DNA of 64,000 nt from Planctomycetota bacterium (GTDB taxonomy: Bacteria > Planctomycetota > UBA1135 > UBA2386): contig OZ245006.1 of assembly GCA_965223545.1 (NCBI GenBank), forward strand, positions 301,954 to 365,953, written 5' to 3'. Each line of letters begins with the position of its first letter. Positions within the stretch are counted from its first letter, which is position 1. The position numbers and the translations under genes are program-made. Of the stretch, positions 1 through 30,030 are shown one piece after another. Under the pieces are notes generated by a model. It made no database searches, was not told where the DNA came from, and saw nothing but the letters and a program-made list of their open reading frames with translations.

Positions 1-497
1 ACGCCACCATCAGCAAGGAGATCGGTGACCTGCAGGCTGTGCTGGACGCCGTCGGCACCCGGCGCGTCTTCTACGCCGGCCACAGCATGGGCGCCGCCGT
101 CGGTGTGTTGTGCGCCGCGCGCGATCCGCGGCTGGCGGGCTTGATCTCGCTCGCCGGCATGGTGCACGTCGCCGAGTTCATGCGCCGGCTGTTCGGCCAC
201 CTGACGCCGGACCGCGACGTGATGCTCGACAAGCCGCACTGCCCGCTGACCAGCGCGTTCTTGGCCGACGCCGAGGCGATCGGCGACGTGCTGGCGGCGG
301 CCGCCGAGATCGCCCAGCCATGGCTCTTGGTGCACGGCACCGCCGACGAGCTGGTGCCGCTGCGCGACGCCGAGGACGCGCGCGCCACTTGCCCAAGGGC
401 CGAGCTGTGGACCATCGCCGGCGCCGACCACCGGTTCACCGGTGTCGAGGACGCGGTCGGCGCGCGGGTCGCCGCCTGGGTCGCCCGCCACGCCTGA
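1..497 (+). CDS. alpha/beta-hydrolase fold protein, 5'-truncated at the window edge; possibly type II thioesterase-like
   Basis: In-frame ORF running off the window start. It has a GHSMG nucleophile-elbow motif and a downstream Asp/His region (LLVHGTADELVP ... DHRF). It lies immediately upstream of the NRPS. Confidence 0.6.
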   Translation, partial: ATISKEIGDLQAVLDAVGTRRVFYAGHSMGAAVGVLCAARDPRLAGLISLAGMVHVAEFMRRLFGHLTPDRDVMLDKPHCPLTSAFLADAEAIGDVLAAAAEIAQPWLLVHGTADELVPLRDAEDARATCPRAELWTIAGADHRFTGVEDAVGARVAAWVARHA

Positions 498-499
498 CG

Positions 500-560
500 A
501 CTGTCGAGAAATCCGACGCCGCAGCAGCGGGGTTTTTGAGCGACCTGCGCCCGCGCGAAT
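500..560 (+). terminator. Weak stem-loop followed by a T-run (gccgcagcagcggggttttt) downstream of the hydrolase gene
   Basis: Short GC stem followed by TTTTT, seen directly. The stem is only 4-5 bp. Confidence 0.25.
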
Positions 561-625
561 GCCGACATCAAAGGACACCGGCACTCCTGCGGGGGCGCCG
601 GCGCTCGACCCTGGTGCCGCGTAGG

Positions 626-3600
626 ATGGCCGACCCCCAGCTGCAACCCGACGTGCAAGACGCGTACGGCCTGTCCCACTTGCAGGCCGGCATGCTGTTC
701 CACGCCCAGTCGGCGGACCGGCCCGGGTTCGACGTGGAGCAGATCGTGCTCGAGCTGCGCGGTCCCCTGGACCGGGCGCGAATGCGGCGCGCCTGGCAGA
801 CCGTGGTGGCGCGGCACGCGGTGCTGCGCACCAGGATCCGGTTCCACGAGCTGCGCGAACCACGCCAGGAAGTCGTGGCCGCGGTCGACGTGCCCTGGAC
901 CGAGCACGACGGGCGGGGCGGCGCGTTCCCGCTGGACGAGCTCTTGCACGCCGACCGCACGCGGGGCTTCGACCTCGAGTCCGCGCCGCTGATGCGCTGC
1001 ACGCTGGTGCACCGCGGCGCCGATCGCGCCGAGCTGATCTGGACGCTACACCACATCATTCTCGACGGGCGCTCGTTCCCGCTGGTGCTGCGCGAGGTGT
1101 TCACGGTGTACGCCGCCGAGGACGGTCCGGCGCCGCAGCCCGACCTTCCGCCGTACCACACCTACATCGATTGGCTGGGCTCCGTCGACCACGAACAGAG
1201 CCGTGCGTTCTGGACCGAACGGCTGCGCGGCTTCAGCCAGCCGACCGCACTGCCCCTGACCTCCTTCCACCGCAGTCCACAACCCTCGACGATCGAGCTG
1301 ACGGCCACCTTGACCGCGGCCGAGACCAACCAGCTCGAGGCCGCCCTGGAGCCGGCCGATGCCTCGCTGAACACCGCACTGCAGGCGGCGTGGTCGGTCC
1401 TGCTGGCCCGTTACGCCGGCGACGAAGACGTCGTGTTCGGCGCCACCCGCGCCTGCCGCTACTTCGACAGCAATCCGCAGGCCAAGGCCATGGTCGGCCT
1501 GTTCATCAACACGCTGCCGCTCCGCGCCCAGCTGCGCGGCGCCACCGTCGAGGACTTGCTGCGGCAACTGCGCACCGACTGGATCGCGCAGCGGCCGGTC
1601 GAGCACACTCCGCTGGTCGACGTGCACCGCTTCAGCGAGCTGCCGGCGGGGACGCCGCTGTTCGAGACCCTGGTGGTCTATGACAGCGAGCCCCTGGCGG
1701 CTCGAATCTGCGGCACCGCCGGCGAGCTCGAGATCGTCGATGCCACGCTGCACGAGCAACCGACCTTCCCCCTGGTGTTGCTGGGCTACGGCGGCGAGCG
1801 CTTGCGGCTCAAGCTGTTGTTCGACGATGGCCGCTTCGAGCGCGGCATCGCCGAGCGGATGTTGGCGCAGGTCGCGGGCCTGCTGCGTTGGATGGCCAGT
1901 GGACTCGAGCAGCCGGTTGCCGAGGCACCGGTGCTGTCGCCGGCCGAGCACACCGAGATCGTCCGCACCTGGAACGACACCGGCGGGGCCCCACCCCGCG
2001 ACCGCTGTCTGCACGAAGACTTCGCCGAGCAGGCACGGCAGCGCCCGCTCGACACCGCCCTGCGCTGCGCCGAGGAGACCTGGAGCTACGCGCGGCTGGA
2101 GGCGACGGCCAATCGGCTCGCCCACCGGCTGCTGCGGGCCGGCGCCGGCGCAGGCGTCCGCGTCGGCATTTGTCTGGAGCGCGCGCCCGCGCTGGTCGCA
2201 GGCCTGCTGGCGATCGCCAAGACCGGGGCCACCTACGTGCCCTTGGACGCCGAGCTGCCCCTCGACCGCCGCCAGTTCATCGCCGAGGACGCGGACCTGG
2301 GTCTGCTGCTGACGCAGCAGGAGCTCGGCGGCGACCTGCAGCCCGGCTGCCCGGTGCTGTTGTTGCACGAGCTCGGCGCGGTGCTCGAGGACGGCCCCGA
2401 CCCCGGCCCGCCGGTGGCCGATCTCGACCCCGACCGCCCGGCGTACGTGATCTACACCTCGGGTTCGACCGGCCGGCCGAAGGGCGTGGTGGTCCACCAC
2501 CGCAGCGCGCTCAACACCATCGACTGGGTCAACGAGACCTACGCGGTCGGCCCGGGCGACTGCCTGCTGTTCGTGACCTCGGTTTGCTTCGACCTCTCGG
2601 TGTACGACGTGTTCGGCGTGCTCGGCGCCGGCGCCTGTCTGCGCATCGCGCGCGCCGGAGAGCTGGCCGACCCCGCGGCGCTGGCAGCGCGGCTGACGAG
2701 CGGCGAGATCACGTTCTGGGACTCGGCGCCGGCGTTCCTGCAGCAGGTCGCGCCGTTTCTGCAACAGCAGTCAGCGCCGCCATCCACCGGCGGCCTGCGC
2801 CTGGTGTTCCTCAGCGGCGACTGGATCCCGGTCACCCTGCCCGAGCGAGTGACGGCGCGTTTCCCCGGCTGCCAGATCATCAGCCTGGGCGGTGCCACCG
2901 AGGCGTCGATCTGGTCCAACTTCTACGCCGTCCAGAATGTCGGCGACCGGTGGCCGAGCATTCCCTACGGCACGCCGATCCGCAACTGCCGCTACCACGT
3001 GCTCGACAGCGCGCTGCGGCCGATGCCAGCGGGGGCCACAGGCGAGCTGTTCATCGGCGGCGACTGCGTGGTCGCCGGCTACCACCGCCGCGACGAGCTC
3101 ACCGCCGAACGCTTCATCCCGGACCCGTTCCACCCAGGCCAGCGGCTGTACCGCACCGGCGATCTCGCGCGCTACGACAGCTTTGGCACCCTGGAGTTCT
3201 TGGGCCGCGCCGACAACCAGGTCAAGGTGCGCGGCTACCGCGTCGAGCTCGGCGAGATCGAGGCCGCGCTCGGCCGCTGCCGCGGCGTCGCCGAAGCCAT
3301 CGTGGTCGCGCCGCGCGACGCCGACGGGACGCGCTCGATCGTCGGCTTCGTCGAGCCCAGCGACCGCGGCGCCGTCGACGCCGATCTGCTGCGCGTGGAG
3401 ATCGAGCGCTGGCTTCCGTCCTACATGGTGCCGGGACGCATCGAGATCCTCGAGCGCTGGCCGCTGTCGCCCAACGGCAAGGTGGACCGCGCGGCCCTCG
3501 AGCGCCGCCCCGGGCACACGGCAAGGGCCCCTTCCGCGCCGGCGGAGACCGACCTCGAGCGGCAGCTGGTGGCGATCTGGTGCGACCTCTTGAACCTCGA

Positions 3601-4675
3601 CGCGATCGGCCGAGACGACAACTTCTTCGATCTCGGCGGACACTCGCTGCGCGCGGCCCAGCTGGTCGCCGAGATCGAGCGACGCCTCGGCGCCCGACTG
3701 CCACTGGAGTCCGTCCTGCAGGCGCCGACCGTCCGCCAGCTCGGCGCCACGCTCGAGCAGGGGCTCGGCACGGGTTCCGGCAGCTCCTTCGTCCACTTCA
3801 ACGCGGGCGGACACCGCGACCCCGTGTTCTTGATCGCCGGAATCGGCGGTCAGGTGTTCATGTTCCGCGAGATGGCGCAGATCCTCGGCGTGGACCAACC
3901 GCTGTACGCCGGCAAGGCGATCGGCATCGACGGCCGCCGCCGCACGCCCGACCGCGTCGAGGACATCGCCGCGCAATACCTCACCGAGCTGCTCGAGCTG
4001 CAGCCCACCGGGCGCTATCGCCTCGGCGGCTACTCGTTCGGCGGGCTGATCGCGTTCGAGGTCGCCGCCCGGCTGCGCGCCAGCGGCCGCGAAGTGACCT
4101 GGCTCGGACTGTTCGACACCCTGGCCCCCGGCTACCCGAGGCGCAAGCCGCTGCCGCAGCGCCTGCGCGAGCATCTCCGCAACCTGCTCGCCGCCGACAA
4201 CGACGAGGCCGGCAACTACCTGCGGGAGCGATTGCACAACATCGGTCGCCGGATTCGCCGCCGCATTGGGATGCGCACCGACATCACCACTCTGCCGGGC
4301 ATGGACGCCCGCACGCAGGATCGCTTCGCCGCGGTCGAAGCGGCGCTCAACCGCGCCAAATGGCGCTATCGCCCCAGCCACAAGCTCGACGTGCCGATCA
4401 CCGTGTTCTGCGCCGAAGAGGGCTTCGATTGGCCGGCGACGACGTTCGACGACCCCGGCCTTGGCTGGAGCCGCTACACCACGGCGGCCGTGCACCACCA
4501 CGCGGTGCCGGGCAGCCACCTCGAGCTGTTCCAAGCGCCCAACGTCGGTCCGCTCTCACAGCGAGTCCGCGAGCAGCTGGCGCCGAGCGACACGGGCACG
4601 CGCGACGAGCATTCCGGCACCCGGGCGCAACAGGTGGCCGCCAACGCCGCCGGTCACTCCTCTTCGATGCGGTAG
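626..4675 (+). CDS. Non-ribosomal peptide synthetase, single module C-A-PCP-TE (about 1350 aa)
   Basis: ATG at 626 is in-frame with the 110..4675 ORF. Condensation motif HHIILDGRSF. Adenylation cores YTSGSTGRPKG, YRTGDL and PNGKVDR. Carrier-protein motif FFDLGGHSLRA. Thioesterase GYSFGG. Stop TAG at 4673-4675. Confidence 0.9.
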   Translation: MADPQLQPDVQDAYGLSHLQAGMLFHAQSADRPGFDVEQIVLELRGPLDRARMRRAWQTVVARHAVLRTRIRFHELREPRQEVVAAVDVPWTEHDGRGGAFPLDELLHADRTRGFDLESAPLMRCTLVHRGADRAELIWTLHHIILDGRSFPLVLREVFTVYAAEDGPAPQPDLPPYHTYIDWLGSVDHEQSRAFWTERLRGFSQPTALPLTSFHRSPQPSTIELTATLTAAETNQLEAALEPADASLNTALQAAWSVLLARYAGDEDVVFGATRACRYFDSNPQAKAMVGLFINTLPLRAQLRGATVEDLLRQLRTDWIAQRPVEHTPLVDVHRFSELPAGTPLFETLVVYDSEPLAARICGTAGELEIVDATLHEQPTFPLVLLGYGGERLRLKLLFDDGRFERGIAERMLAQVAGLLRWMASGLEQPVAEAPVLSPAEHTEIVRTWNDTGGAPPRDRCLHEDFAEQARQRPLDTALRCAEETWSYARLEATANRLAHRLLRAGAGAGVRVGICLERAPALVAGLLAIAKTGATYVPLDAELPLDRRQFIAEDADLGLLLTQQELGGDLQPGCPVLLLHELGAVLEDGPDPGPPVADLDPDRPAYVIYTSGSTGRPKGVVVHHRSALNTIDWVNETYAVGPGDCLLFVTSVCFDLSVYDVFGVLGAGACLRIARAGELADPAALAARLTSGEITFWDSAPAFLQQVAPFLQQQSAPPSTGGLRLVFLSGDWIPVTLPERVTARFPGCQIISLGGATEASIWSNFYAVQNVGDRWPSIPYGTPIRNCRYHVLDSALRPMPAGATGELFIGGDCVVAGYHRRDELTAERFIPDPFHPGQRLYRTGDLARYDSFGTLEFLGRADNQVKVRGYRVELGEIEAALGRCRGVAEAIVVAPRDADGTRSIVGFVEPSDRGAVDADLLRVEIERWLPSYMVPGRIEILERWPLSPNGKVDRAALERRPGHTARAPSAPAETDLERQLVAIWCDLLNLDAIGRDDNFFDLGGHSLRAAQLVAEIERRLGARLPLESVLQAPTVRQLGATLEQGLGTGSGSSFVHFNAGGHRDPVFLIAGIGGQVFMFREMAQILGVDQPLYAGKAIGIDGRRRTPDRVEDIAAQYLTELLELQPTGRYRLGGYSFGGLIAFEVAARLRASGREVTWLGLFDTLAPGYPRRKPLPQRLREHLRNLLAADNDEAGNYLRERLHNIGRRIRRRIGMRTDITTLPGMDARTQDRFAAVEAALNRAKWRYRPSHKLDVPITVFCAEEGFDWPATTFDDPGLGWSRYTTAAVHHHAVPGSHLELFQAPNVGPLSQRVREQLAPSDTGTRDEHSGTRAQQVAANAAGHSSSMR

Positions 4676-21543: not shown

Positions 21544-23820
21544 TCAGCGCCCGCCGATCACCGCGCGGAGCGCGTTGCTCGCGGTGACGCCCAGCGGGTT
21601 CGCCGGTGGGTCGACAACGGCCGCCTGCGCGTAGAACTGCGCCGCGATCAGGCTGGGATCGGCGGGGATCGACAATCCGATCCGGGTCGAGCCGGCGCTC
21701 GACAACGCGAGGACGATGCCGGCGGCCGCGTTGGTGTAGAGCGCGCAGTTGGGCATGCCGATGCCCGCGAGCGGAACGGGCAACGTCAGCGCCCCCCACT
21801 GGCTGCTCGAGTCGCCCAGCACCAGCAGGCCGGGGCTCCCGGGCGGGACCGCATCGAGCTGCAGCGTCGCGTTTCCACCCAGCCACGGCAACCCGTAGGG
21901 CGCGACCGACAGCGCCGGGACTCCCGCCGAACCGGAGCAACCCGCGCCGAACGGCACCGCCGCTGCCGGCGCGTCGGGGGCGAGGCTCCACCAGTCGTCG
22001 AGGAGGGTCAACCTGCCGATCGCGCCACCACTGATCCACATCCGGCCGCGCGTGCCGTCGTAGGCGGCGGCGTGCTCGCTGCGGGGGGGCGGCGGAGTGG
22101 CGGGGTTCCGCTGCGTCCAGGTGACGCCGTCCCACTCCCAGACATCCGCAAACTCACGGCCGGCACCGAAGCCGCCGAACAAGACCACACAGCCGCGGGC
22201 GCGGTCGAAGGTCAGCGTGTGCCCGGACCGCGGCGACGGAGACGCGGAGGGCGAACGCTGGCTCCACTGGCCACCGACCCACTCCCAGGTATCGCCGAAC
22301 GTCGTCGCCGCGTTGACACCGCCGAACAGCACGACGGCATCCCGGCGGGCGTCGTAGGCCAACGCGTGCCGCTCCCTCGCCGGCGGGGACTGCGGCGACG
22401 GCTCGGCCCGCCACGCCACGCCATCGGTCGACCACGTATCCCCGATGATCCCACTCGCCGCACGACCGCCGAAGACCAGCCCGCGCCTGCTGGATTCCAT
22501 CCAGGCGAACCCGTGCTCACTCCGTTCCGGCGGAGGGTTCTGCTGGTTGACCTGCCGCCAGTCGTTGCCGTTCCACGACCAAAGGTCGTTGTAGAACACC
22601 GCGCGGTTGCCGCCGAACATGAGCGAGCGGCGATTGTCGCCGTCGTAGACCAACGAGTGTCCCACCCGCGGCGGAGGCCGGGTCACCGGCTGTCGCTGAA
22701 CCCAGTCCGTGCCCACCCACTCCCAGGTCTTGTTGCCGTGGGTCGCCATCGGCGCTCCGCCGAACGCCACGACTCGATCGCGGCTCGTGTCGTACGCCAG
22801 CGCGTGTCCCTGCACCGGGCGGGGAGCCGGATCGTTGCGCAGTGACCAGTCGCTGCCGTCCCACTCCCAGAGATCGCTGCCGTTTCCGTACAGCACCACG
22901 CGCCGGCGGGCCGGGTCGTAGGCCATGTCGTGACAGATGCGTCCCGGTGGCGTCTGGGAAGGCTGCTGGCGCGTCCAGTTCGTTCCGTCCCAGGTCCACG
23001 TGTCATTCAGTGGTTGCAGCAGCACACCCCGACCGCCGAACAGCACGACGACCCCACGCGCCGCGTCGAACGCCATCGCGTGGTCGAACCGTGCACTCGG
23101 TGACTGCGCCGGCGAACGCACGTTCCAATCGCCGCCATCCCAGACCAGCGTCGTGTCCACCTCGGTGGCGAACCTGATGATGCTCTCACCGCCAAACGCC
23201 ACGATCTCGCCGCGCACCGAGTCGTATGCCATCGCGAATCCTTCGAGCGGCTGCGGCAATGGGGCGCCGGCGCGCAGCTTCCAGTTCGTGCCATCGAACA
23301 CCCAGGTCTCGTCGCTCGACATGGCGCCGACCGAGCCCCCCGCCAACACCATCACGCCGCGGGCGGCGTCGAAGGCCATCGGCGCCCGCCGCCGTGGACT
23401 CGGCGACGAGGCCGGCAACACTTGCGCCCATTGGCTCCCGTCCCACTCCCAGGTGTCACCGAGCGAAGCGAACAGATTGGTCAGCCCACCGAACGCGACA
23501 ACCACGCCGCGGCTCGTATCCAAGGCGAGTGCGTGACTCATGCGCGCCGGCATGCTCCCGGTGGGGATCAGGGTCACGCGAGTACCGTCCCAGTGCCACG
23601 ACTCGGGCACGACAGCACCGAGGCTGTAGCCGCCGCCGACCACGAGGACGCCGCGGCCGCTCGGATCGGTGGCCATCCGTGGCTCGCTGCGGAACCCGGG
23701 AATCGGTGCACGCGTCCACGACAGCTGAGCGGCGGGACAGGTGCAGCAAGACACCACGGCGAGGGCTGCTGCGCCCAGCGTGGCTCGGCCCGAGGTGATG
23801 GGGTGGGAATCGGGTCTCAT
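21544..23820 (-). CDS. Secreted Kelch-repeat beta-propeller protein (about 14 repeats) with a C-terminal about 120 aa Ala/Gly/Pro-rich domain
   Basis: Signal peptide MRPDSHPITSGRATLGAAALAVVSCC. Repeating unit '...VVLFGG....DTWEWDG..W..' occurs about 14 times. Confidence 0.8.
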   Translation of the reverse strand: MRPDSHPITSGRATLGAAALAVVSCCTCPAAQLSWTRAPIPGFRSEPRMATDPSGRGVLVVGGGYSLGAVVPESWHWDGTRVTLIPTGSMPARMSHALALDTSRGVVVAFGGLTNLFASLGDTWEWDGSQWAQVLPASSPSPRRRAPMAFDAARGVMVLAGGSVGAMSSDETWVFDGTNWKLRAGAPLPQPLEGFAMAYDSVRGEIVAFGGESIIRFATEVDTTLVWDGGDWNVRSPAQSPSARFDHAMAFDAARGVVVLFGGRGVLLQPLNDTWTWDGTNWTRQQPSQTPPGRICHDMAYDPARRRVVLYGNGSDLWEWDGSDWSLRNDPAPRPVQGHALAYDTSRDRVVAFGGAPMATHGNKTWEWVGTDWVQRQPVTRPPPRVGHSLVYDGDNRRSLMFGGNRAVFYNDLWSWNGNDWRQVNQQNPPPERSEHGFAWMESSRRGLVFGGRAASGIIGDTWSTDGVAWRAEPSPQSPPARERHALAYDARRDAVVLFGGVNAATTFGDTWEWVGGQWSQRSPSASPSPRSGHTLTFDRARGCVVLFGGFGAGREFADVWEWDGVTWTQRNPATPPPPRSEHAAAYDGTRGRMWISGGAIGRLTLLDDWWSLAPDAPAAAVPFGAGCSGSAGVPALSVAPYGLPWLGGNATLQLDAVPPGSPGLLVLGDSSSQWGALTLPVPLAGIGMPNCALYTNAAAGIVLALSSAGSTRIGLSIPADPSLIAAQFYAQAAVVDPPANPLGVTASNALRAVIGGR

Positions 23821-23947
23821 GTGGCGTGTCCAGGGTAGGCGACCTGATCGCCCCGGTGCCGCGGTGGCCGCTCTTACTGCAACGCTCGCCGACAAAAACT
23901 CCGTTCCGGTGTAGCAATGCACGCCTCCCGGGCGGACACCGAGCAAG

Positions 23948-26941
23948 ATGGCCCGCAGGGAAGACCAGCTGTTCATCCGCTTCCGGCGCCACGGCGACGC
24001 CGACGCGCTGGCGTCCGTCTTCGATGCCACCGCACAAGAGCTCCTGCGCCTCGCGCGGCATCTCGCGCCGGACGACGCCGCCGAGGACTTGGTCCAGCGC
24101 ACCTACCTCGACGCGATCCAGCACGCCGACCGCTACGACGCGAACCGCGGCGTCGTGCCGTGGCTGTGCGGCCTGCTCGCCATCCACGCGCGCCGTCATC
24201 GGCGCGCCTTGCAGCGGCGCAGGAAGGGCAACCAACGCCTGCGCGAAACCCCGCCGAGACGGACTCCGGATCCCGCCGCCACGGCGGAGAGCGCGGAGCT
24301 CAGCGCGGTGGTCCGCGCCGAGATCGCCCGCGCCGGCTCCCCGTACACCGAAGTACTGCAGCTGCAGCTCGAAGAGGGGCTCAGCGCGCGCGCGATCGCC
24401 GAGCGCTTGGGCCGGCCGCCGGGCACGGTCCGCACCCAGCTGGTGCGGGGCATCGACCGCTTGCGCCAACGGCTCGTCGGGTGCGCGCCTGCCACAATCG
24501 CCGTCACGACGGCTTCGACACACCAAGTGGCACCACTGCGCGCGGCCGTTGTGGCGGCGGCGCGGCGCGCGGGCCCATCGCTCGTTCCGGCCTCCACTGC
24601 CGCACTCGGAGCCCTCGCCATGAAGAAGCTCGCCCTCGCGATTCCGCTCGTCTTCCTCGCCACCCTGGTCGGGTGGTGGGCGATACCCACACAAGCCCCC
24701 CTGCAGCGCAGCGACCCGTCGCCGGACACCGCCGACCTCGGCGCCGCGACCGTCGGCAGCGCGCGCGACAACCGCGCCGCCGGGGCAACGCCGACCGCGC
24801 GACGGGCCGTCTCGCCCGCCGGCGCGCCGCGCACTCCGGCGCCGCGCCCGCTTCTCGCACGAGTCGTGGCGCTCGACGAGACTCCCCAGCCCGAGCGCTT
24901 CATCGTTGTCCGCGACGCCGGCCGACGCCTGGCCTCCGGCTGGACCGACGCCCGCGGTGAGGCGCGCTTCGACGACGTCCCCGAGAGCGCTCGGCTGCAG
25001 TGCGGTCCGGTGACCGTTTCGGCGACCGACGCCATTCGCAGCACCGACGCACCCGTCGTCGTGGTCCTTACCATGCCCGCCGGCAAGGCCGTCCGCGGGC
25101 GCGTCGTCGACGCCTTCGACCAGCCGGTCGCCGGCGCCGCCGTGCTGGGCTGGGGTGGCGGCGACCGCGACGACGGGCAGCCACTGACCCGGTCCGGCGC
25201 CGACGGCCGTTTCGAGGTCGACGAACTCCAGTCCAAGGTGATCGAGGTGCGCAAGGACGGCTTCGAGGTCGGCTGGAGCGGGTTGCTCGCGCAGGGCGCG
25301 GACGTGACGGTGCGACTGCGGCCGAACGACCGTCACTTGAGCGGCATCGTGCTCGCGCCCGACGGATCGCCGGCCGCCGGCGCCCGCGTCTTCGTCTTCG
25401 CCTACCTCGACCGCCCGGTCACCCACGGCGACAGCGGCGGTCGCAACTTCGAGGCCGCGTTCGACGCCGACGACCGGGGGCGCTTCGCGATTGGTTGGCT
25501 GCCCGCGGGCTCCGGCCACGTCGTGGCGACGCCCGGCACCGTCGACGCGAACACCACCCCGGTGTGGGCGGCGATGACGGAGCTCGGACTGAGCGGATCG
25601 ACGCGCGCCGCGCTGACTTTGCGGGGGGTCGCGACCGGCTCGGTCCGCGTGACGATCGCGGACGAGCACGGTGCGCCGATGCAGCGCGCGGTCGCGCGCA
25701 CGCGCGCCTCCGGAGTTGTCTTCGGCATGTCGGTGCCGATACGTGCCAGTGGGCAGACGAACGCCGAAGGGGTCGCCACGATCGATGGCCTGGTCGCGGG
25801 CCCGCACGTCGTGACGGTCTACCGCGGCAGCGACCGCCAAGAGCGGACCGCTGAGGTCGCTCCCGGAAGAACCACCGAGCTCGCCTTTCGCTGGGAACCA
25901 GCACGGACCTTCGCCCTGGAACTCGTCGATCCGGCGGGTCATCCGCACGCGCGCTGGCGCGCGCTCCTGCGCGGCGGCGGCCACACTACCGGAACAATCC
26001 TGTCGACAACGGGCGAGGACGGCATCGCGGAGTTCGAGGGACTCGCCGAAGACGTCTCCTACTCCCTGGTCGTTTTTGCCCCCAACCAGCCCATTCACCC
26101 GGTCGCACGCCGCGACGGCATCGATGCGGACACGGGGCGGATGCGAATGCAACTCGACGAGTCGCAGCTCCAACCGCGCAGTCTCCGTGGCCAATTCGTC
26201 GCCACCGACGGCCCGGTCACCGGCGAGGCAAAGCTTGTGCCGCTGGGCGGCGGGCTGCAGAACACGGCGGAACTCACCGACGGCGCGTTCGCGTTCGACG
26301 ACATGCCTCCGGGCCGCTACCGCCTGTTCCTCGACGCCACGGACCACGTCATGGACGCGCGCGAAGTGGAGATCTCTCCCGGCGCCGACACCGAGCTGCC
26401 CGCAGTAACCGTCGTTGCCGCGGCCAGGCTACGGGTCGCGTGCCCGGGACTCGGCGTCCAAGACGCCGACAAGCTCCGGGTCGCACTCGCGCGCACCCAC
26501 CCGGCGTTCGAGCTCACACGCTCCTCGGAGCAGGCCGCCGAGTGGCGCTGCGGCCACGCGATGCACCCCGGCACCTACCGGCTGTTGGTCTACGGCACCG
26601 ACACGCTCCCATTGGACATGGAGGTCGAGCTGCGCCCGGGCGACCAAGTGATCCAGTTCGAGCTGCCGGGGACCGCGACTCCGGTGGCGCTGCGCGCCCG
26701 GCTCCAAGACACGGACTACGGCGCCATCGCCCGCGGCGAAGTGGAGATCGAGGGCAACGGGGTTGCGATCCGCGAGCGGTTCTTCGGCCACTTCGACGAC
26801 ATCGAAGAGCAGCTCGCCATCCGCCGCTTCGGCCTCGCGCCCGGATCCTACGAAGTCACGGTGCGCGGCATGAAGGGCGAGACGTCGCAGACGATCGAGG
26901 TGGGAACAGTTGCGCTCGACGTCGATCTGGCCGTGCGCTGA
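23948..26941 (+). CDS. ECF (sigma-70 family) sigma factor fused in-frame to a TM helix and a large extracytoplasmic Ig-like / carboxypeptidase-regulatory-like repeat region (997 aa)
   Basis: Region 2 (DLVQRTYLDAIQHADRYDANRGVVPWLCGL) and region 4 (LSARAIAERLGRPPGTVRTQLVRGIDRLRQRL) are in the first about 180 aa. There is no in-frame stop before MKKLALAIPLVFLATLVGWWAI, a TM or signal-like segment. CarboxypepD_reg-like units follow, for example GRVVDAFDQPVAGAAV...ADGRFEV. Confidence 0.65.
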   Translation: MARREDQLFIRFRRHGDADALASVFDATAQELLRLARHLAPDDAAEDLVQRTYLDAIQHADRYDANRGVVPWLCGLLAIHARRHRRALQRRRKGNQRLRETPPRRTPDPAATAESAELSAVVRAEIARAGSPYTEVLQLQLEEGLSARAIAERLGRPPGTVRTQLVRGIDRLRQRLVGCAPATIAVTTASTHQVAPLRAAVVAAARRAGPSLVPASTAALGALAMKKLALAIPLVFLATLVGWWAIPTQAPLQRSDPSPDTADLGAATVGSARDNRAAGATPTARRAVSPAGAPRTPAPRPLLARVVALDETPQPERFIVVRDAGRRLASGWTDARGEARFDDVPESARLQCGPVTVSATDAIRSTDAPVVVVLTMPAGKAVRGRVVDAFDQPVAGAAVLGWGGGDRDDGQPLTRSGADGRFEVDELQSKVIEVRKDGFEVGWSGLLAQGADVTVRLRPNDRHLSGIVLAPDGSPAAGARVFVFAYLDRPVTHGDSGGRNFEAAFDADDRGRFAIGWLPAGSGHVVATPGTVDANTTPVWAAMTELGLSGSTRAALTLRGVATGSVRVTIADEHGAPMQRAVARTRASGVVFGMSVPIRASGQTNAEGVATIDGLVAGPHVVTVYRGSDRQERTAEVAPGRTTELAFRWEPARTFALELVDPAGHPHARWRALLRGGGHTTGTILSTTGEDGIAEFEGLAEDVSYSLVVFAPNQPIHPVARRDGIDADTGRMRMQLDESQLQPRSLRGQFVATDGPVTGEAKLVPLGGGLQNTAELTDGAFAFDDMPPGRYRLFLDATDHVMDAREVEISPGADTELPAVTVVAAARLRVACPGLGVQDADKLRVALARTHPAFELTRSSEQAAEWRCGHAMHPGTYRLLVYGTDTLPLDMEVELRPGDQVIQFELPGTATPVALRARLQDTDYGAIARGEVEIEGNGVAIRERFFGHFDDIEEQLAIRRFGLAPGSYEVTVRGMKGETSQTIEVGTVALDVDLAVR

Positions 26942-27080
26942 GGGGCGGCGGGCAAACGCGAAGCGCAGTCAAAGCGCAACAGCGCAACATCACAACGATA
27001 GGGCATGGTGGTTGGTTCCCCCCGTCCAAGGTCCCCGGTCGCACCGCCCGCGGCCGTCGAGCCAGGTTAGACTCGACGCC

Positions 27081-28973
27081 ATGGCACACACACCGACAGT
27101 CCATGCTCTCCTGGCGACCTCGATCCTCGGGATTATTGGAGACGTCCGCTCGCAGGGCGACGTATGGGTCCTCGGGCCGCCCAATGGCATCGATGACACC
27201 GCAGCCTTCCAGAACGCCATTTCTGGTTCGACTGAGACGACACCGACCTTGATCACGTTCGCTCATCCGGGCACCTATCGCTTCGGTCCAGTCGCTGGCG
27301 ACGCGCAGGACCCCTTGTTCGAAATCCATGGGTTCACCGACCTCCAGATCACTGCTGTCGCGGGCGTCACGATCGAGCTCTTTGGCTATGACCGAGTGAA
27401 GGGAAGCTCGAAGGACATCTTTGAGCTCAGCGGCTGCAACAGCGTCACGATCTCGGGTGCCGATGCCACCAACCCTCTCGTGTTCGACATGGAGCCAAGC
27501 TCCGGCGGATCGAACGGGCTGCCGTGGTTTCAAGGCACCCTACATGACATCGACCTCATCGGTGGGTTCGCCACGATCCGCATCACGGACCCCGACTTCT
27601 ACCTGCCAAGCGGTGTGCAGATTGCGGAACCTTGGAGCGCCCGTCCATTCATCAACGGATATCCACATGCGGAACGAACGGTTTGGGGTGCCGCTCATAG
27701 CGGCGTGATCCTCCCGGCACCTCCCCCCATGGCGACCCATCAGGACGTAACACTGAGCTATGCCGCTTCTGCGAGCGCCCGCCTGAGTACTTGGGCGACC
27801 GGCGACCGCATCGTCGTCTCGCTGGGGGACAGCGAACAAGCGCTGTTCCAATGCCGCAACCTGAGCGGAATCCCGAACTCCGATCTCGAGTTCACGAACA
27901 TCGAAGTCCGTTGTTTCGCCGGAAAGACACTCATGCTCGGCAACACACACGGCGTCACGCTCGACAACTACAACGTCCGCCCCGCATCGACTCTCCGGAA
28001 GCTCTCTTCGGTCCGAGACGGGGTCTCCGGACGGCCGACAGGAGAGGTCGTCATTCGCAACTGTGAGTTCAAAAAATGCGGAGACGACGCCATTCAGATG
28101 GGCTCCCAACCGGTCGCGCGCGTCGTCAGCTATGACGCCTTGCTGTCCCAGGCAGTGATCGCACTCGCGACTCCGGCGGGGCAACAACATCCCAACTACA
28201 AGCCAGGTTGGGCTGTCGAAGCACGGCCAGCGTCTTGGTCCCGCTCGAATCGCGAGACGGCAACAATCCTCTCGGTCCAGAACTCCGGCGCTCAGCAAAC
28301 CCTGACCCTGTTGAACGAGACGCCCGGGTTCGCCGCGGTCATGAAGCCCGACGCACTGTTGTTCGCCGTCTCCCAGAACTGGAGTTCCTGCCTCGTCGAT
28401 TCGTGCGTGATCAAGAGCGTGCGTGGTGGCGGGATCAAGCTGCGCAACGGCCCGATCACGATCAGGAACAGCCAGATCTTCAAGACGACGTCCTACGGGA
28501 TCTTCCTCGGCGGCGGTACTCCATCGGCCGGATCGAAGTACCCGCTCGGTGGAAACGTCTATCCCCCTGATTCCTCGGAGATCACGAACTGCGACATCCA
28601 GCACGCCGGTCCCCGAGGCAACATTCACCCCTCCATGCACGCGTCGGTCTACATCGGCGTTGCCGATGACGTCGTCAACGGCCAGTGGCAGAACCCAACC
28701 GCCTCGTGCGACGTGATCACGAACGTCCTGGTCCAGAACAACCGCTTCATCAGCGACCGCACCTACGCTCGGGGCGGTCTGTACTGTCACGGCATCGGTG
28801 GCGCGACCGGACTGCAGCTGGTGAACAACGACTTCCAAGACCTGGGAGACAGCACGACCTCAAATCTGCCCTGGCAGTACGGGGTGTACACCAGCGACTG
28901 CGTCATCACCACTGACACCGGAAACACCTACACGAACTGCTACAAGCCCTCGTTCTTTGGCGGGTGCCAGTAG
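27081..28973 (+). CDS. Right-handed parallel beta-helix repeat protein (pectate-lyase-like fold); compositionally atypical and lower-GC
   Basis: Repeated beta-helix rungs, for example NSVTISG, ITIRNSQI, VITNVLVQNNRF and LQLVNNDF. GC and GC3 are markedly lower than in neighbouring genes. There is no clear signal peptide. Confidence 0.6.
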   Translation: MAHTPTVHALLATSILGIIGDVRSQGDVWVLGPPNGIDDTAAFQNAISGSTETTPTLITFAHPGTYRFGPVAGDAQDPLFEIHGFTDLQITAVAGVTIELFGYDRVKGSSKDIFELSGCNSVTISGADATNPLVFDMEPSSGGSNGLPWFQGTLHDIDLIGGFATIRITDPDFYLPSGVQIAEPWSARPFINGYPHAERTVWGAAHSGVILPAPPPMATHQDVTLSYAASASARLSTWATGDRIVVSLGDSEQALFQCRNLSGIPNSDLEFTNIEVRCFAGKTLMLGNTHGVTLDNYNVRPASTLRKLSSVRDGVSGRPTGEVVIRNCEFKKCGDDAIQMGSQPVARVVSYDALLSQAVIALATPAGQQHPNYKPGWAVEARPASWSRSNRETATILSVQNSGAQQTLTLLNETPGFAAVMKPDALLFAVSQNWSSCLVDSCVIKSVRGGGIKLRNGPITIRNSQIFKTTSYGIFLGGGTPSAGSKYPLGGNVYPPDSSEITNCDIQHAGPRGNIHPSMHASVYIGVADDVVNGQWQNPTASCDVITNVLVQNNRFISDRTYARGGLYCHGIGGATGLQLVNNDFQDLGDSTTSNLPWQYGVYTSDCVITTDTGNTYTNCYKPSFFGGCQ

Positions 28974-28998
28974 CCCGCGCTCTTACACTGGATCGCCG

Positions 28999-30030
28999 AT
29001 GGTGCGTCCGGTCCAAAACCCACCGAACCCTTGGGCCCAAACCCACGTCGATCTCGGCGTGGCGCCCCCAGACGCGCGGCTCGAGGTCTACGAGGAAGAG
29101 GCCAAGAGCGTGGTGTCGCGCAACGAGAGCCCCGACGTGCCGTTCACGTTCAGCATCAATCCCTATCGCGGCTGCCACCACGGCTGTGCCTACTGCTACG
29201 CGCGGCCGACGCACGAGTACTTGGGGTTCGGCGCGGGCACCGACTTCGAACGGCGCATCGTGGTGAAGACCAACGCAGCCGCATTGCTCGAGGACGCGCT
29301 GCGCAAGGGCACGACGCGCGGCGAGGTGCTCGCGTTCTCCGGGGTGACCGACTGCTACCAGCCGCTCGAGGCCAGCTACCGGCTGACGCGCCGCTGTCTC
29401 GCGGTGTGCGCGCGCTTCGAACAGCCGGTCGGCATCATCACCAAAGGTGCGTTGGTCGAGCGCGACATCGACCTCCTGTCGGAACTTGGCCGCGTAGCGC
29501 GCGCGTCGGTGTTCTTGAGCATCCCGTTCGCCGACGACGCGATGGCGCAGCGGATCGAGCCCTTCGCGCCGACGCCGACGCGGCGGCTGCGCGCCCTGGC
29601 AGCGCTGGCCGAGGCCGGCATCGACTGCGGCGTCGCGGTGGCGCCGATCATCCCCGGCCTCAACGACGACCAGATCCCCCGGATCCTGAGGGCTGCGCGC
29701 GACGCCGGCGCGCGGCGCGCGTTCCCGATCCTGCTGCGCCTGCCCGGCAACGTCCGCGCCGTGTTCGCCGAGCGGCTGCACGAGCGCGAGCCGCTGCGGG
29801 CAGAACGCGTGCTGCGGTCCACCGCGGCGGCGCGCGGCGGCGACGACGCCGGCCAGCACCGGTTCGGCAAGCGGATGGTCGGCAGCGGCCCTCGCTGGGA
29901 CGCCGTGCGGCAGCTGTTTGCCCTCGAGTGCGCCCGGCTGGGCTACAGCACGGCCGACGAGCGGCGGTCGATGCCCGAGCCACGACCGGCGCGGCGGCCG
30001 CGGCAGCGCGGACTGTTCGGCGACGACTGA
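28999..30030 (+). CDS. Radical SAM protein, SplB-like (COG1533 'DNA repair photolyase' family)
   Basis: CHHGCAYC (Cx3Cx2C) cluster near the N-terminus. Overall resemblance to the PA0069/Rv2578c family. Confidence 0.75.
   Translation: MVRPVQNPPNPWAQTHVDLGVAPPDARLEVYEEEAKSVVSRNESPDVPFTFSINPYRGCHHGCAYCYARPTHEYLGFGAGTDFERRIVVKTNAAALLEDALRKGTTRGEVLAFSGVTDCYQPLEASYRLTRRCLAVCARFEQPVGIITKGALVERDIDLLSELGRVARASVFLSIPFADDAMAQRIEPFAPTPTRRLRALAALAEAGIDCGVAVAPIIPGLNDDQIPRILRAARDAGARRAFPILLRLPGNVRAVFAERLHEREPLRAERVLRSTAAARGGDDAGQHRFGKRMVGSGPRWDAVRQLFALECARLGYSTADERRSMPEPRPARRPRQRGLFGDD

Follow-up and report, generated by a model that had tools for sequence, protein, structure and literature searches.

We examined a 64,000-nucleotide stretch of DNA from a Planctomycetota bacterium (contig OZ245006.1, positions 301,954 to 365,953; hereafter the window) and found that a single gene at 23948..26941 on its forward strand joins an extracytoplasmic function (ECF) sigma factor to a linker, a transmembrane helix and a large ectodomain. 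The list of open reading frames (ORFs) and the translation give 997 codons followed by a stop codon (26939-26941). The window has a GC content of 70.9% and contains very long ORFs in several frames, among them a 963-aa ORF on the opposite strand and a 347-aa ORF, which overlap the gene (region 23456-26347 (-) and other frames). Third-position GC in the reported frame is 0.76-0.96 over the full length of the ORF and 0.5-0.6 immediately downstream or just outside, and therefore one coding frame runs from end to end. As this signal is found in the plus frame only, the 963-aa and 347-aa ORFs are shadows typical of DNA with 71% GC.

The layout of the protein was derived from Pfam matches, column counts in a 49-sequence family alignment, a hydrophobicity scan and a full-length AlphaFold2 model built on that alignment (mean predicted local distance difference test score (pLDDT) 84.5, predicted template modelling score (pTM) 0.67); all coordinates of its parts are on the plus strand. 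The sigma2 domain (aa 4-100, 23957..24247) is modelled as helices with pLDDT >90 and contains the Pfam Sigma70_r2 match (aa 26-90), and the helices of the sigma4 domain (aa 109-177, 24272..24478) contain the Sigma70_r4_2 match (aa 135-172). These are followed by a cytoplasmic linker (24476..24571), defined by the family column counts, with a post-sigma4 turn (L-P-x-G) and an amphipathic helix at aa 193-208 (VAPLRAAVVAAARRA; modelled helix 194-208). The juxtamembrane motif G-A-L-A-M-K-K (24608..24628), also recognized from column counts, includes an internal ATG at 24620-24622; 48 aa with one helix separate sigma4 from the transmembrane helix. The hydrophobic segment LALAIPLVFLATLVGWWAIPT (aa 228-248, 24629..24691; mean Kyte-Doolittle value 2.2) comes directly after M225-K-K and forms the only transmembrane helix, which is modelled at 221-244 and ends in a near-invariant Trp (W243). 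Beyond it lies a disordered Pro/Ala-rich extracytoplasmic spacer (aa 249-299, 24692..24844), where family identity is 18%, pLDDT is <50 at 247-292 and no secondary structure is modelled between the transmembrane helix and residue 300. The remainder (aa 300-997, 24845..26938) is an all-beta ectodomain of ~8 tandem CarboxypepD_reg/Ig-like beta-sandwich domains with pLDDT mostly >85, a layout that rests on Pfam, AlphaFold2, Foldseek and stand-alone homologues. Because the sigma domain has to be cytoplasmic and basic residues lie on the N-terminal side of the transmembrane helix, we infer that the topology must be N-in/C-out.

By every testable criterion, the N-terminal part is predicted to be an ECF (group 4) sigma factor. 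It scored 59.1 bits against a cutoff of 42.9 with the sigma70-ECF model TIGR02937, 30.3 against 24 with Sigma70_r2 and 27.1 against 25.7 with Sigma70_r4_2; the Pfam models of regions 3 and 1 gave no match, leaving sigma2 and sigma4 as the only sigma domains of the protein. Consistently, a profile of the N-terminal 250 residues matched the solved ECF sigmas SigE, SigW, SigH, SigL, AlgU, RpoE and CnrH, at positions 1-178 only, with SigE, SigW, SigH and AlgU as the best sequence matches in the PDB. The planctomycete ECF subfamilies of NCBIfam stayed below their cutoffs (TIGR02989, 55.0 vs 124.55; TIGR02984, 43.7 vs 183.75). Invariant in the family alignment are D47 and Q50 of the DLVQ motif, W72 and L73 in sigma2, and R167 and L172 in sigma4; the helix-turn-helix motif GTVRTQLVRG of sigma4 follows a GTVRxQ pattern that is >90% conserved in the 49 sequences. 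The only semi-conserved Cys is C74 (23/49), and sigma4 has no conserved Cys. The invariant residues fall in regions 2.2-2.4 and 4.2, which bind core polymerase and promoter DNA, and the domain is therefore under selection as a sigma factor. Mean pairwise identity is 51% in sigma2, 49% in sigma4, 38% in the linker helix, 18-24% in the other linker parts and 21-27% in the ectodomain, which indicates that both the sigma core and the family-specific linker helix are under purifying selection.

A search covering 5.8 billion proteins returned the identical protein (P0001, NCBI/ENA, on an 8.07-Mb contig) and 58 relatives of 703-1473 aa. Two alignments of the family were made, A1 over the entire protein and A2 over its N-terminal 250 residues; the column counts refer to 49 sequences. 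Every one of the 58 relatives has Sigma70_r2 and/or r4 and a long C-terminal extension, which carries CarboxypepD_reg repeats in 57 of them; in the exception, P0033, a Prenyltrans toroid takes their place. Full-length identity to the closest relative is 44%, and the continuous architecture is kept down to 25% identity. Relatives with a source name are annotated 'sigma-70 family RNA polymerase sigma factor [Planctomycetota bacterium]'. A DNA-level scan with one genome per species likewise placed relatives mostly in metagenome-assembled genomes (MAGs) of Planctomycetota, and nine of the loci have uninterrupted ORFs of 740-1194 aa with the parts in the same order. The ectodomain alone (aa 300-997) was used in a phmmer search against 1.84 billion cluster representatives, with the presence of a sigma domain judged by a hidden Markov model (HMM) built for this analysis. 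There were 545 matches at E <= 1e-3, and the best 150 comprised 62 with and 88 without a sigma domain; at least 62 clusters at 50% identity thus share the fusion.

These data bear on whether the fusion is an artefact, that is, whether a stop codon was lost in this genome only, through an error of sequencing or assembly or through a recent point mutation. Every retrieved homologue has the same continuous architecture, the nine DNA loci are each one ORF, the coding signal is uniform and the linker itself is conserved; we therefore rejected an error or a private loss of the stop codon and give this explanation practically no chance. The original prediction had proposed comparing homologues for a fusion or an intervening stop codon and classifying the N-terminus by ECF HMMs, and both checks came out in its favour (58/58 relatives and nine MAG loci fused; 59.1 against 42.9 bits). 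Its complete ECF sigma domain in the first ~180 aa is borne out by the three models above cutoff and by modelled sigma helices that extend to residue 177. Its 45-aa linker without a stop codon measures 48 aa in a continuous frame, and its transmembrane segment with ~770 aa of Ig-like/CarboxypepD_reg-like ectodomain is nearly correct in length, with all-beta domains reaching residue 997. The architecture thus supports a single membrane-tethered sigma factor. The rarity that had been claimed for such proteins was overstated, given these clusters and the fused ECF/transmembrane extensions in the literature (PMC5411451, PMC8999054, PMC7671368).

Short forms consisting of sigma and transmembrane parts only were considered as natural split variants and rejected. 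L007 (336 aa) is frameshifted, because its homology to the ectodomain goes on in a different frame; L014 and L015 hold truncated sigmas, and P0066 (292 aa) is a further short-form candidate. At least three fusion loci (L003, L006 and L014) occur in one MAG, SMAG_U1950, and at L004:1748-3666 a second sigma-like ORF and an ectodomain ORF follow the first fusion copy. In P0040 (1295 aa), the ORF runs past the ectodomain into a second protein with its own signal peptide (MKTTPLFLLALALLGRPAAAQ), as a result of either another read-through fusion or the loss of a stop codon.

The segment between sigma4 and the ectodomain carries a signature of its own. In family order, sigma4 is followed by LPxG, the amphipathic helix, a Gly/Ala/Thr-rich stretch, the juxtamembrane consensus GG-h-h-M-x-K-K, the Ala/Gly-rich transmembrane helix and Trp. 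In the L-P-x-G turn, P177 is found in 42/49 and G179 in 37/49 sequences, and the linker helix follows the consensus G-L-A-A-V-R-x-x-V-L-x-x-A, with L194 in 42/49, R198 in 44/49 and V201 in 39/49. Near the membrane, G221 is kept in 34/49 sequences, positions K226-228 are enriched, and the Trp at the end of the transmembrane helix (W243) is present in 41/49. The linker signature matched no Pfam family and no relative of solved structure.

Anti-sigma elements were sought in the protein and around it. Pfam found no anti-sigma domain in the protein, and FecR and DUF4880 gave no match at E <= 1. The zinc-binding anti-sigma (ZAS) motif HxxxCxxC was absent between residues 150 and 320 from all 49 family members, and there was no zf-HC2 match. 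A built-in class I anti-sigma domain has four helices in ~80-90 aa, whereas 48 aa and one helix are available here and the profile matches to PDB structures end at residue 178. Together, these results agree with the claim of the original prediction that there is no room for a canonical anti-sigma domain. Neither an anti-sigma gene nor a second sigma gene was found in the window.

We then analyzed the ectodomain and its relatives. CarboxypepD_reg (PF13620) reached 77.9 bits over four stretches (cutoff 32.3) and fn3_3 reached 31.0 bits (cutoff 24.4); a match to bMG3 was weak. Foldseek searches of the PDB with the modelled ectodomain matched tandem Ig-like, CnaB and MG domains, as found in pilins, adhesins, S-layer proteins and alpha-2-macroglobulins, indicating that it forms a generic beta-sandwich rod without a catalytic or known ligand-binding fold. 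About 50 of the 88 sigma-less relatives begin with a Met that directly precedes a signal/anchor helix, as exemplified by P0135, which starts MQKLVLGVALAVAAAAVWWLSQRD and is colinear with aa 225-997 of the fusion protein (27% identity over 468 aa, E 8e-18). Like that part of the fusion protein, the stand-alone proteins P0135 and P0181 start with M-x-K and a transmembrane helix that has W at its end, and a low-complexity spacer leads to the same beta-sandwich repeats; unlike the fusion protein, they are without a sigma domain, the linker and an upstream sigma gene. In the two genomic contexts that were read (L081 for P0135 and L084 for P0181), the neighbours are divergently transcribed and no sigma gene lies upstream. 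Stand-alone CarboxypepD_reg relatives of this kind presumably serve simply as envelope proteins that are exported or anchored.

The colinearity with P0135-type genes marks the fused gene as a sigma-plus-linker part joined to a complete gene of the stand-alone type. We infer that the gene arose by the joining of a sigma gene to the gene of a complete signal-anchored beta-sandwich protein, and the internal Met-Lys-Lys is probably a relic of the old start codon and the n-region of the signal anchor. The same sigma-linker-transmembrane head also occurs with other outside modules, namely the Prenyltrans/TED-like alpha/alpha toroid of P0033 and HEAT repeats at L010:7956-9989. These two cases show ectodomain swapping, and the overall picture is that of a transducing head that is conserved, outside modules that can be exchanged and no fixed partners. 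Among the ectodomain relatives, P0126, P0190 and P0235 have N-termini that resemble multi-pass membrane proteins, not a sigma domain or a simple anchor, which hints that the same outside module has been attached to other transducers.

Another reading is that the fusion is fortuitous and has little role in signalling: a duplicated sigma gene would have been inserted upstream of an exported-protein gene and captured it, the ectodomain would keep a structural or adhesive role, and the sigma domain would simply be anchored or decaying. The joining of sigma and exported-protein genes is the origin that Pinto & da Fonseca 2020 proposed for planctomycetal ECF extensions (PMC7671368), which speaks for this reading. 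Also compatible with a chance fusion are the unconserved gene context (see below), the generic, adhesin- or pilin-like ectodomain and the frameshifted or truncated state of some loci (L007, L014, L015). However, the fusion is kept in 62 or more clusters at 50% identity, the sigma core is ~50% identical and its functional residues are invariant, and the specific linker signature co-occurs with it, even where the ectodomain is a different one. This persistence, together with the signature, points to selection on the fused head and not to decay, and we consider a fortuitous fusion improbable.

The internal Met bears on a second alternative, in which two products are made from one frame: the full-length protein and, from the ATG at 24620 (M225), a separate signal-anchored or exported beta-sandwich protein. 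M225-K-K with the hydrophobic helix behind it resembles the start of an exported protein, and stand-alone homologues begin exactly so. Supporting this idea further, GGAG stands 8 nt upstream of the ATG, and the hydrophobicity scan of 59 homologues placed a Met a few residues before the transmembrane helix in about two thirds of the members. However, the conserved Gly-Ala codons themselves spell the GGAG, which may be a by-product of coding, no homologue has a stop codon between the halves, and a sigma-only product would be impossible without proteolysis. At the exact column, the fused family has M in 19/49, V in 12/49 and L in 7/49 sequences. In the alignment, it thus behaves like a site near the membrane that takes hydrophobic residues, not like a start codon that is conserved, and with Met in just 19/49, internal initiation cannot be a requirement of the family. 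The internal ATG had been described as a perfect start for an exported protein; in the light of the stand-alone homologues, it is better explained as a relic of fusion with a signal-anchored protein of their type. Two cistrons in the same frame, the other option offered, found no support as a property of the family, since the stop codon is missing throughout, and we give little credence to internal initiation in this gene.

We next consider the neighbourhood. An all-against-all BLAST comparison of the ORFs flanking ten homologous loci and the window gene revealed no conserved neighbour; only the fusion gene was common to them. The gene divergent from it (21544-23820, minus strand), which is not conserved beside the homologues, encodes a Kelch beta-propeller protein of 758 aa whose N-terminus is signal-like and contains Cys, and TonB_C and SIR2 genes lie further upstream of it. 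The TonB_C protein, encoded 3.3 kb upstream of the fusion gene, is not a receptor. Directly downstream of the fusion gene is the gene of a right-handed beta-helix protein with a Beta_helix match (~630 aa, 27082-28973, plus strand), followed by a radical SAM gene. A GC island of 61-62% at 27000-29000, in surroundings of 68-77% GC, coincides with the Beta_helix gene, which may be a recent acquisition. At its start, the window cuts through a nonribosomal peptide synthetase module with Condensation, AMP-binding, PP-binding and Thioesterase domains (29-4675, plus strand).

ECF sigmas direct transcription from AAC/CGT-type promoters, usually including their own. The intergenic region of 127 bp between the Kelch and sigma genes (23821..23947) contains a candidate GCAAC-N18-CGTT at 23879-23905. 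A second match to GCAAC-N15-18-CG(A/T)T lies on the other side of the fusion gene at 26976-26999 (+), within three CAAC repeats. The ECF-like pattern GCAAC-N15-18-CGWT has seven matches in the window where 4.85 are expected, which is chance level. A scan for sigma-70 promoters and terminators found nothing.

How might such a protein work? In IutY of Pseudomonas putida, the only experimentally studied fused sigma, a cytosolic ECF sigma and a periplasmic domain form one polypeptide; Prc shortens the periplasmic part to ~50 residues before RseP cleaves within the membrane (PMC5411451). Activation by proteolysis has also been proposed for the actinobacterial groups ECF52 (SCO4117), ECF48 and ECF53, in which one or two transmembrane helices are followed, outside the cytoplasm, by a Pro-rich stretch and a putative binding domain (PMC8999054, PMC5826349). 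By analogy, the window protein could be a tethered, inactive sigma that is freed by regulated proteolysis after sensing by the ectodomain, a mechanism to which we assign an even chance; a self-contained, one-component transmembrane signalling sigma in a single polypeptide is plausible. Tethering, possibly helped by the linker helix, would, by analogy with IutY and ECF52, keep the sigma from productive engagement with RNA polymerase and promoters. Upon an extracytoplasmic cue, the ectodomain would be trimmed to the ~50-aa spacer, an intramembrane site-2 protease would cut the Ala/Gly-rich transmembrane helix, and the released sigma with its linker would bind core RNA polymerase and turn on its regulon. 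The fit of the ~50-aa disordered spacer and the Ala/Gly-rich transmembrane helix to the precedent of IutY and ECF48/52/53 favours proteolytic release.

Several results weigh against this mechanism. Among the ~30 ORFs scanned in the 64-kb window, none encodes a site-1 or site-2 protease, nor is one conserved nearby; such proteases are usually unlinked to the genes of their substrates. A bipartite k-mer search of 12 upstream regions (that of the window gene and 11 homologous ones) stayed within shuffle noise and thus revealed no autoregulatory ECF promoter. The linker helix has a pLDDT of ~68-80 in the full-length model and of 59-66 in an N-terminal-only model (pTM 0.50), and in Foldseek the modelled sigma2/sigma4 arrangement reached TM-scores of no more than 0.3-0.5 to both anti-sigma-bound and holoenzyme-bound sigmas in the PDB. 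With no confident docking of the helix and a match to neither state, autoinhibition is unsupported. Moreover, in canonical systems, the hydrophobic Ala-rich stub left by site-2 cleavage is a ClpXP degron, and the freed sigma would keep such a stub at its C-terminus, so that release could destroy the sigma rather than activate it. The conserved linker helix is a further weak point, as proteolytic release leaves it without an explained role.

In another model, the sigma is active while tethered: it would recruit RNA polymerase to promoters at the membrane in a ToxR/CadC-like manner, and the ectodomain would modulate it through the transmembrane and linker helices by conformation or oligomerisation. 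Conservation is higher in the linker helix and the juxtamembrane motif than in the ectodomain and the other inter-domain segments (38% vs 18-27%), which suggests that the tether does more than hold the protein. In line with such a model, sigma4 is extended at its C-terminus in other functional ECFs, ECF41 and ECF42 (PMC8999054), and planctomycetal ECF sigmas have been recovered from detergent-soluble (membrane) fractions of Tuwongella (PMC8567305). However, AlphaFold2 and Foldseek gave no structural signal of coupling. We know of no precedent for a sigma factor working while anchored in the membrane. Since the only characterised fused sigma, IutY, also requires proteolytic release (PMC5411451), we consider tethered activity unlikely. 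A related idea is that the conserved head is a minimal transducer of an undescribed type. Its 15-residue linker helix, together with the juxtamembrane motif, might stand in for the whole anti-sigma domain as a built-in inhibitor or as a switch close to the membrane, the ectodomain controlling the sigma directly and perhaps without release. We rate this idea as rather unlikely; if it held, the rod of ~8 domains could probe the enlarged planctomycetal periplasm or the outer envelope.

ECF sigma factors make up the third major route by which bacteria transduce signals. Planctomycetota have dozens of them per genome, many with unexplained C-terminal extensions and without an anti-sigma partner. 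Against this background, the locus provides a clear and well-conserved case of a sigma that is linked covalently to a membrane anchor and, beyond it, to a large ectodomain. The family-specific linker helix, the juxtamembrane motif and the stand-alone relatives of the ectodomain offer experimental handles, and working out the mechanism would tell whether a sigma can be regulated without an anti-sigma domain and whether it acts after release or while tethered. Reportedly, Wiegand et al. 2020 described 30 planctomycetal ECF groups. Proteins of the present kind have already been deposited under generic annotations, and the family may already have an ECF group number; the Pfam and NCBIfam results set it apart from IutY, from ECF52, ECF48 and ECF53, from ECF57 as described and from the planctomycete subfamilies of NCBIfam.

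Compared with known systems, the window protein shares its logic with RpoE/RseA and SigW/RsiW, in which a single-pass protein that senses the envelope with its outside part keeps a cytoplasmic sigma at the membrane. Those pairs are non-covalent complexes with a class I anti-sigma, whereas the link here is covalent, the class I fold is missing and the sigma would carry a stub. Closer in lineage is the planctomycetal group ECF57 (formerly ECF01-Gob), which is described with WD40-like repeats and two conserved Cys that link sigma2 and sigma4. With ECF57 and other long-extension planctomycetal ECFs, the window family shares the phylum, a large C-terminal extension, the lack of an anti-sigma gene, an unconserved context and several paralogues per genome (PMC7826278, PMC7671368). 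It differs in that neither the window protein nor any of the 58 homologues has a WD40 match in Pfam and in that the half-conserved C74 stands in place of two Cys.

The actinobacterial groups ECF52, ECF48 and ECF53 have the same order of a transmembrane helix (228-248 in the window protein), a Pro/Ala-rich stretch (249-299) and folded extracytoplasmic domains. They carry a zinc-finger (ZAS-like) element between sigma and the transmembrane part, whereas the 48-aa linker of the window family has none of the HxxxCxxC motif in any of its sequences; the ectodomain is a carbohydrate-binding module in ECF52-type groups and a series of CarboxypepD_reg repeats here. IutY, an ECF243 protein and a FecI/FecR-type hybrid, likewise has a sigma, one transmembrane segment and a periplasmic part in one polypeptide, and it offers the best model of how the window protein might work. 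IutY has a FecR-like anti-sigma domain and a TonB-dependent receptor or adjacent transducer, neither of which accompanies the window protein; the latter has a family-specific linker and a ~700-aa beta-sandwich ectodomain and belongs to Planctomycetota, not Proteobacteria. ECFs with fused, membrane-spanning extensions form an established class, and so do the planctomycetal ones whose extensions are long and variable (PMC7826278, PMC7671368, PMC8999054). Specific to the window family are its linker signature, the lack of an anti-sigma element and the clear origin by fusion from a stand-alone signal-anchored protein; our finding thus extends the known class of fused sigma/sensor proteins and opens no new one.

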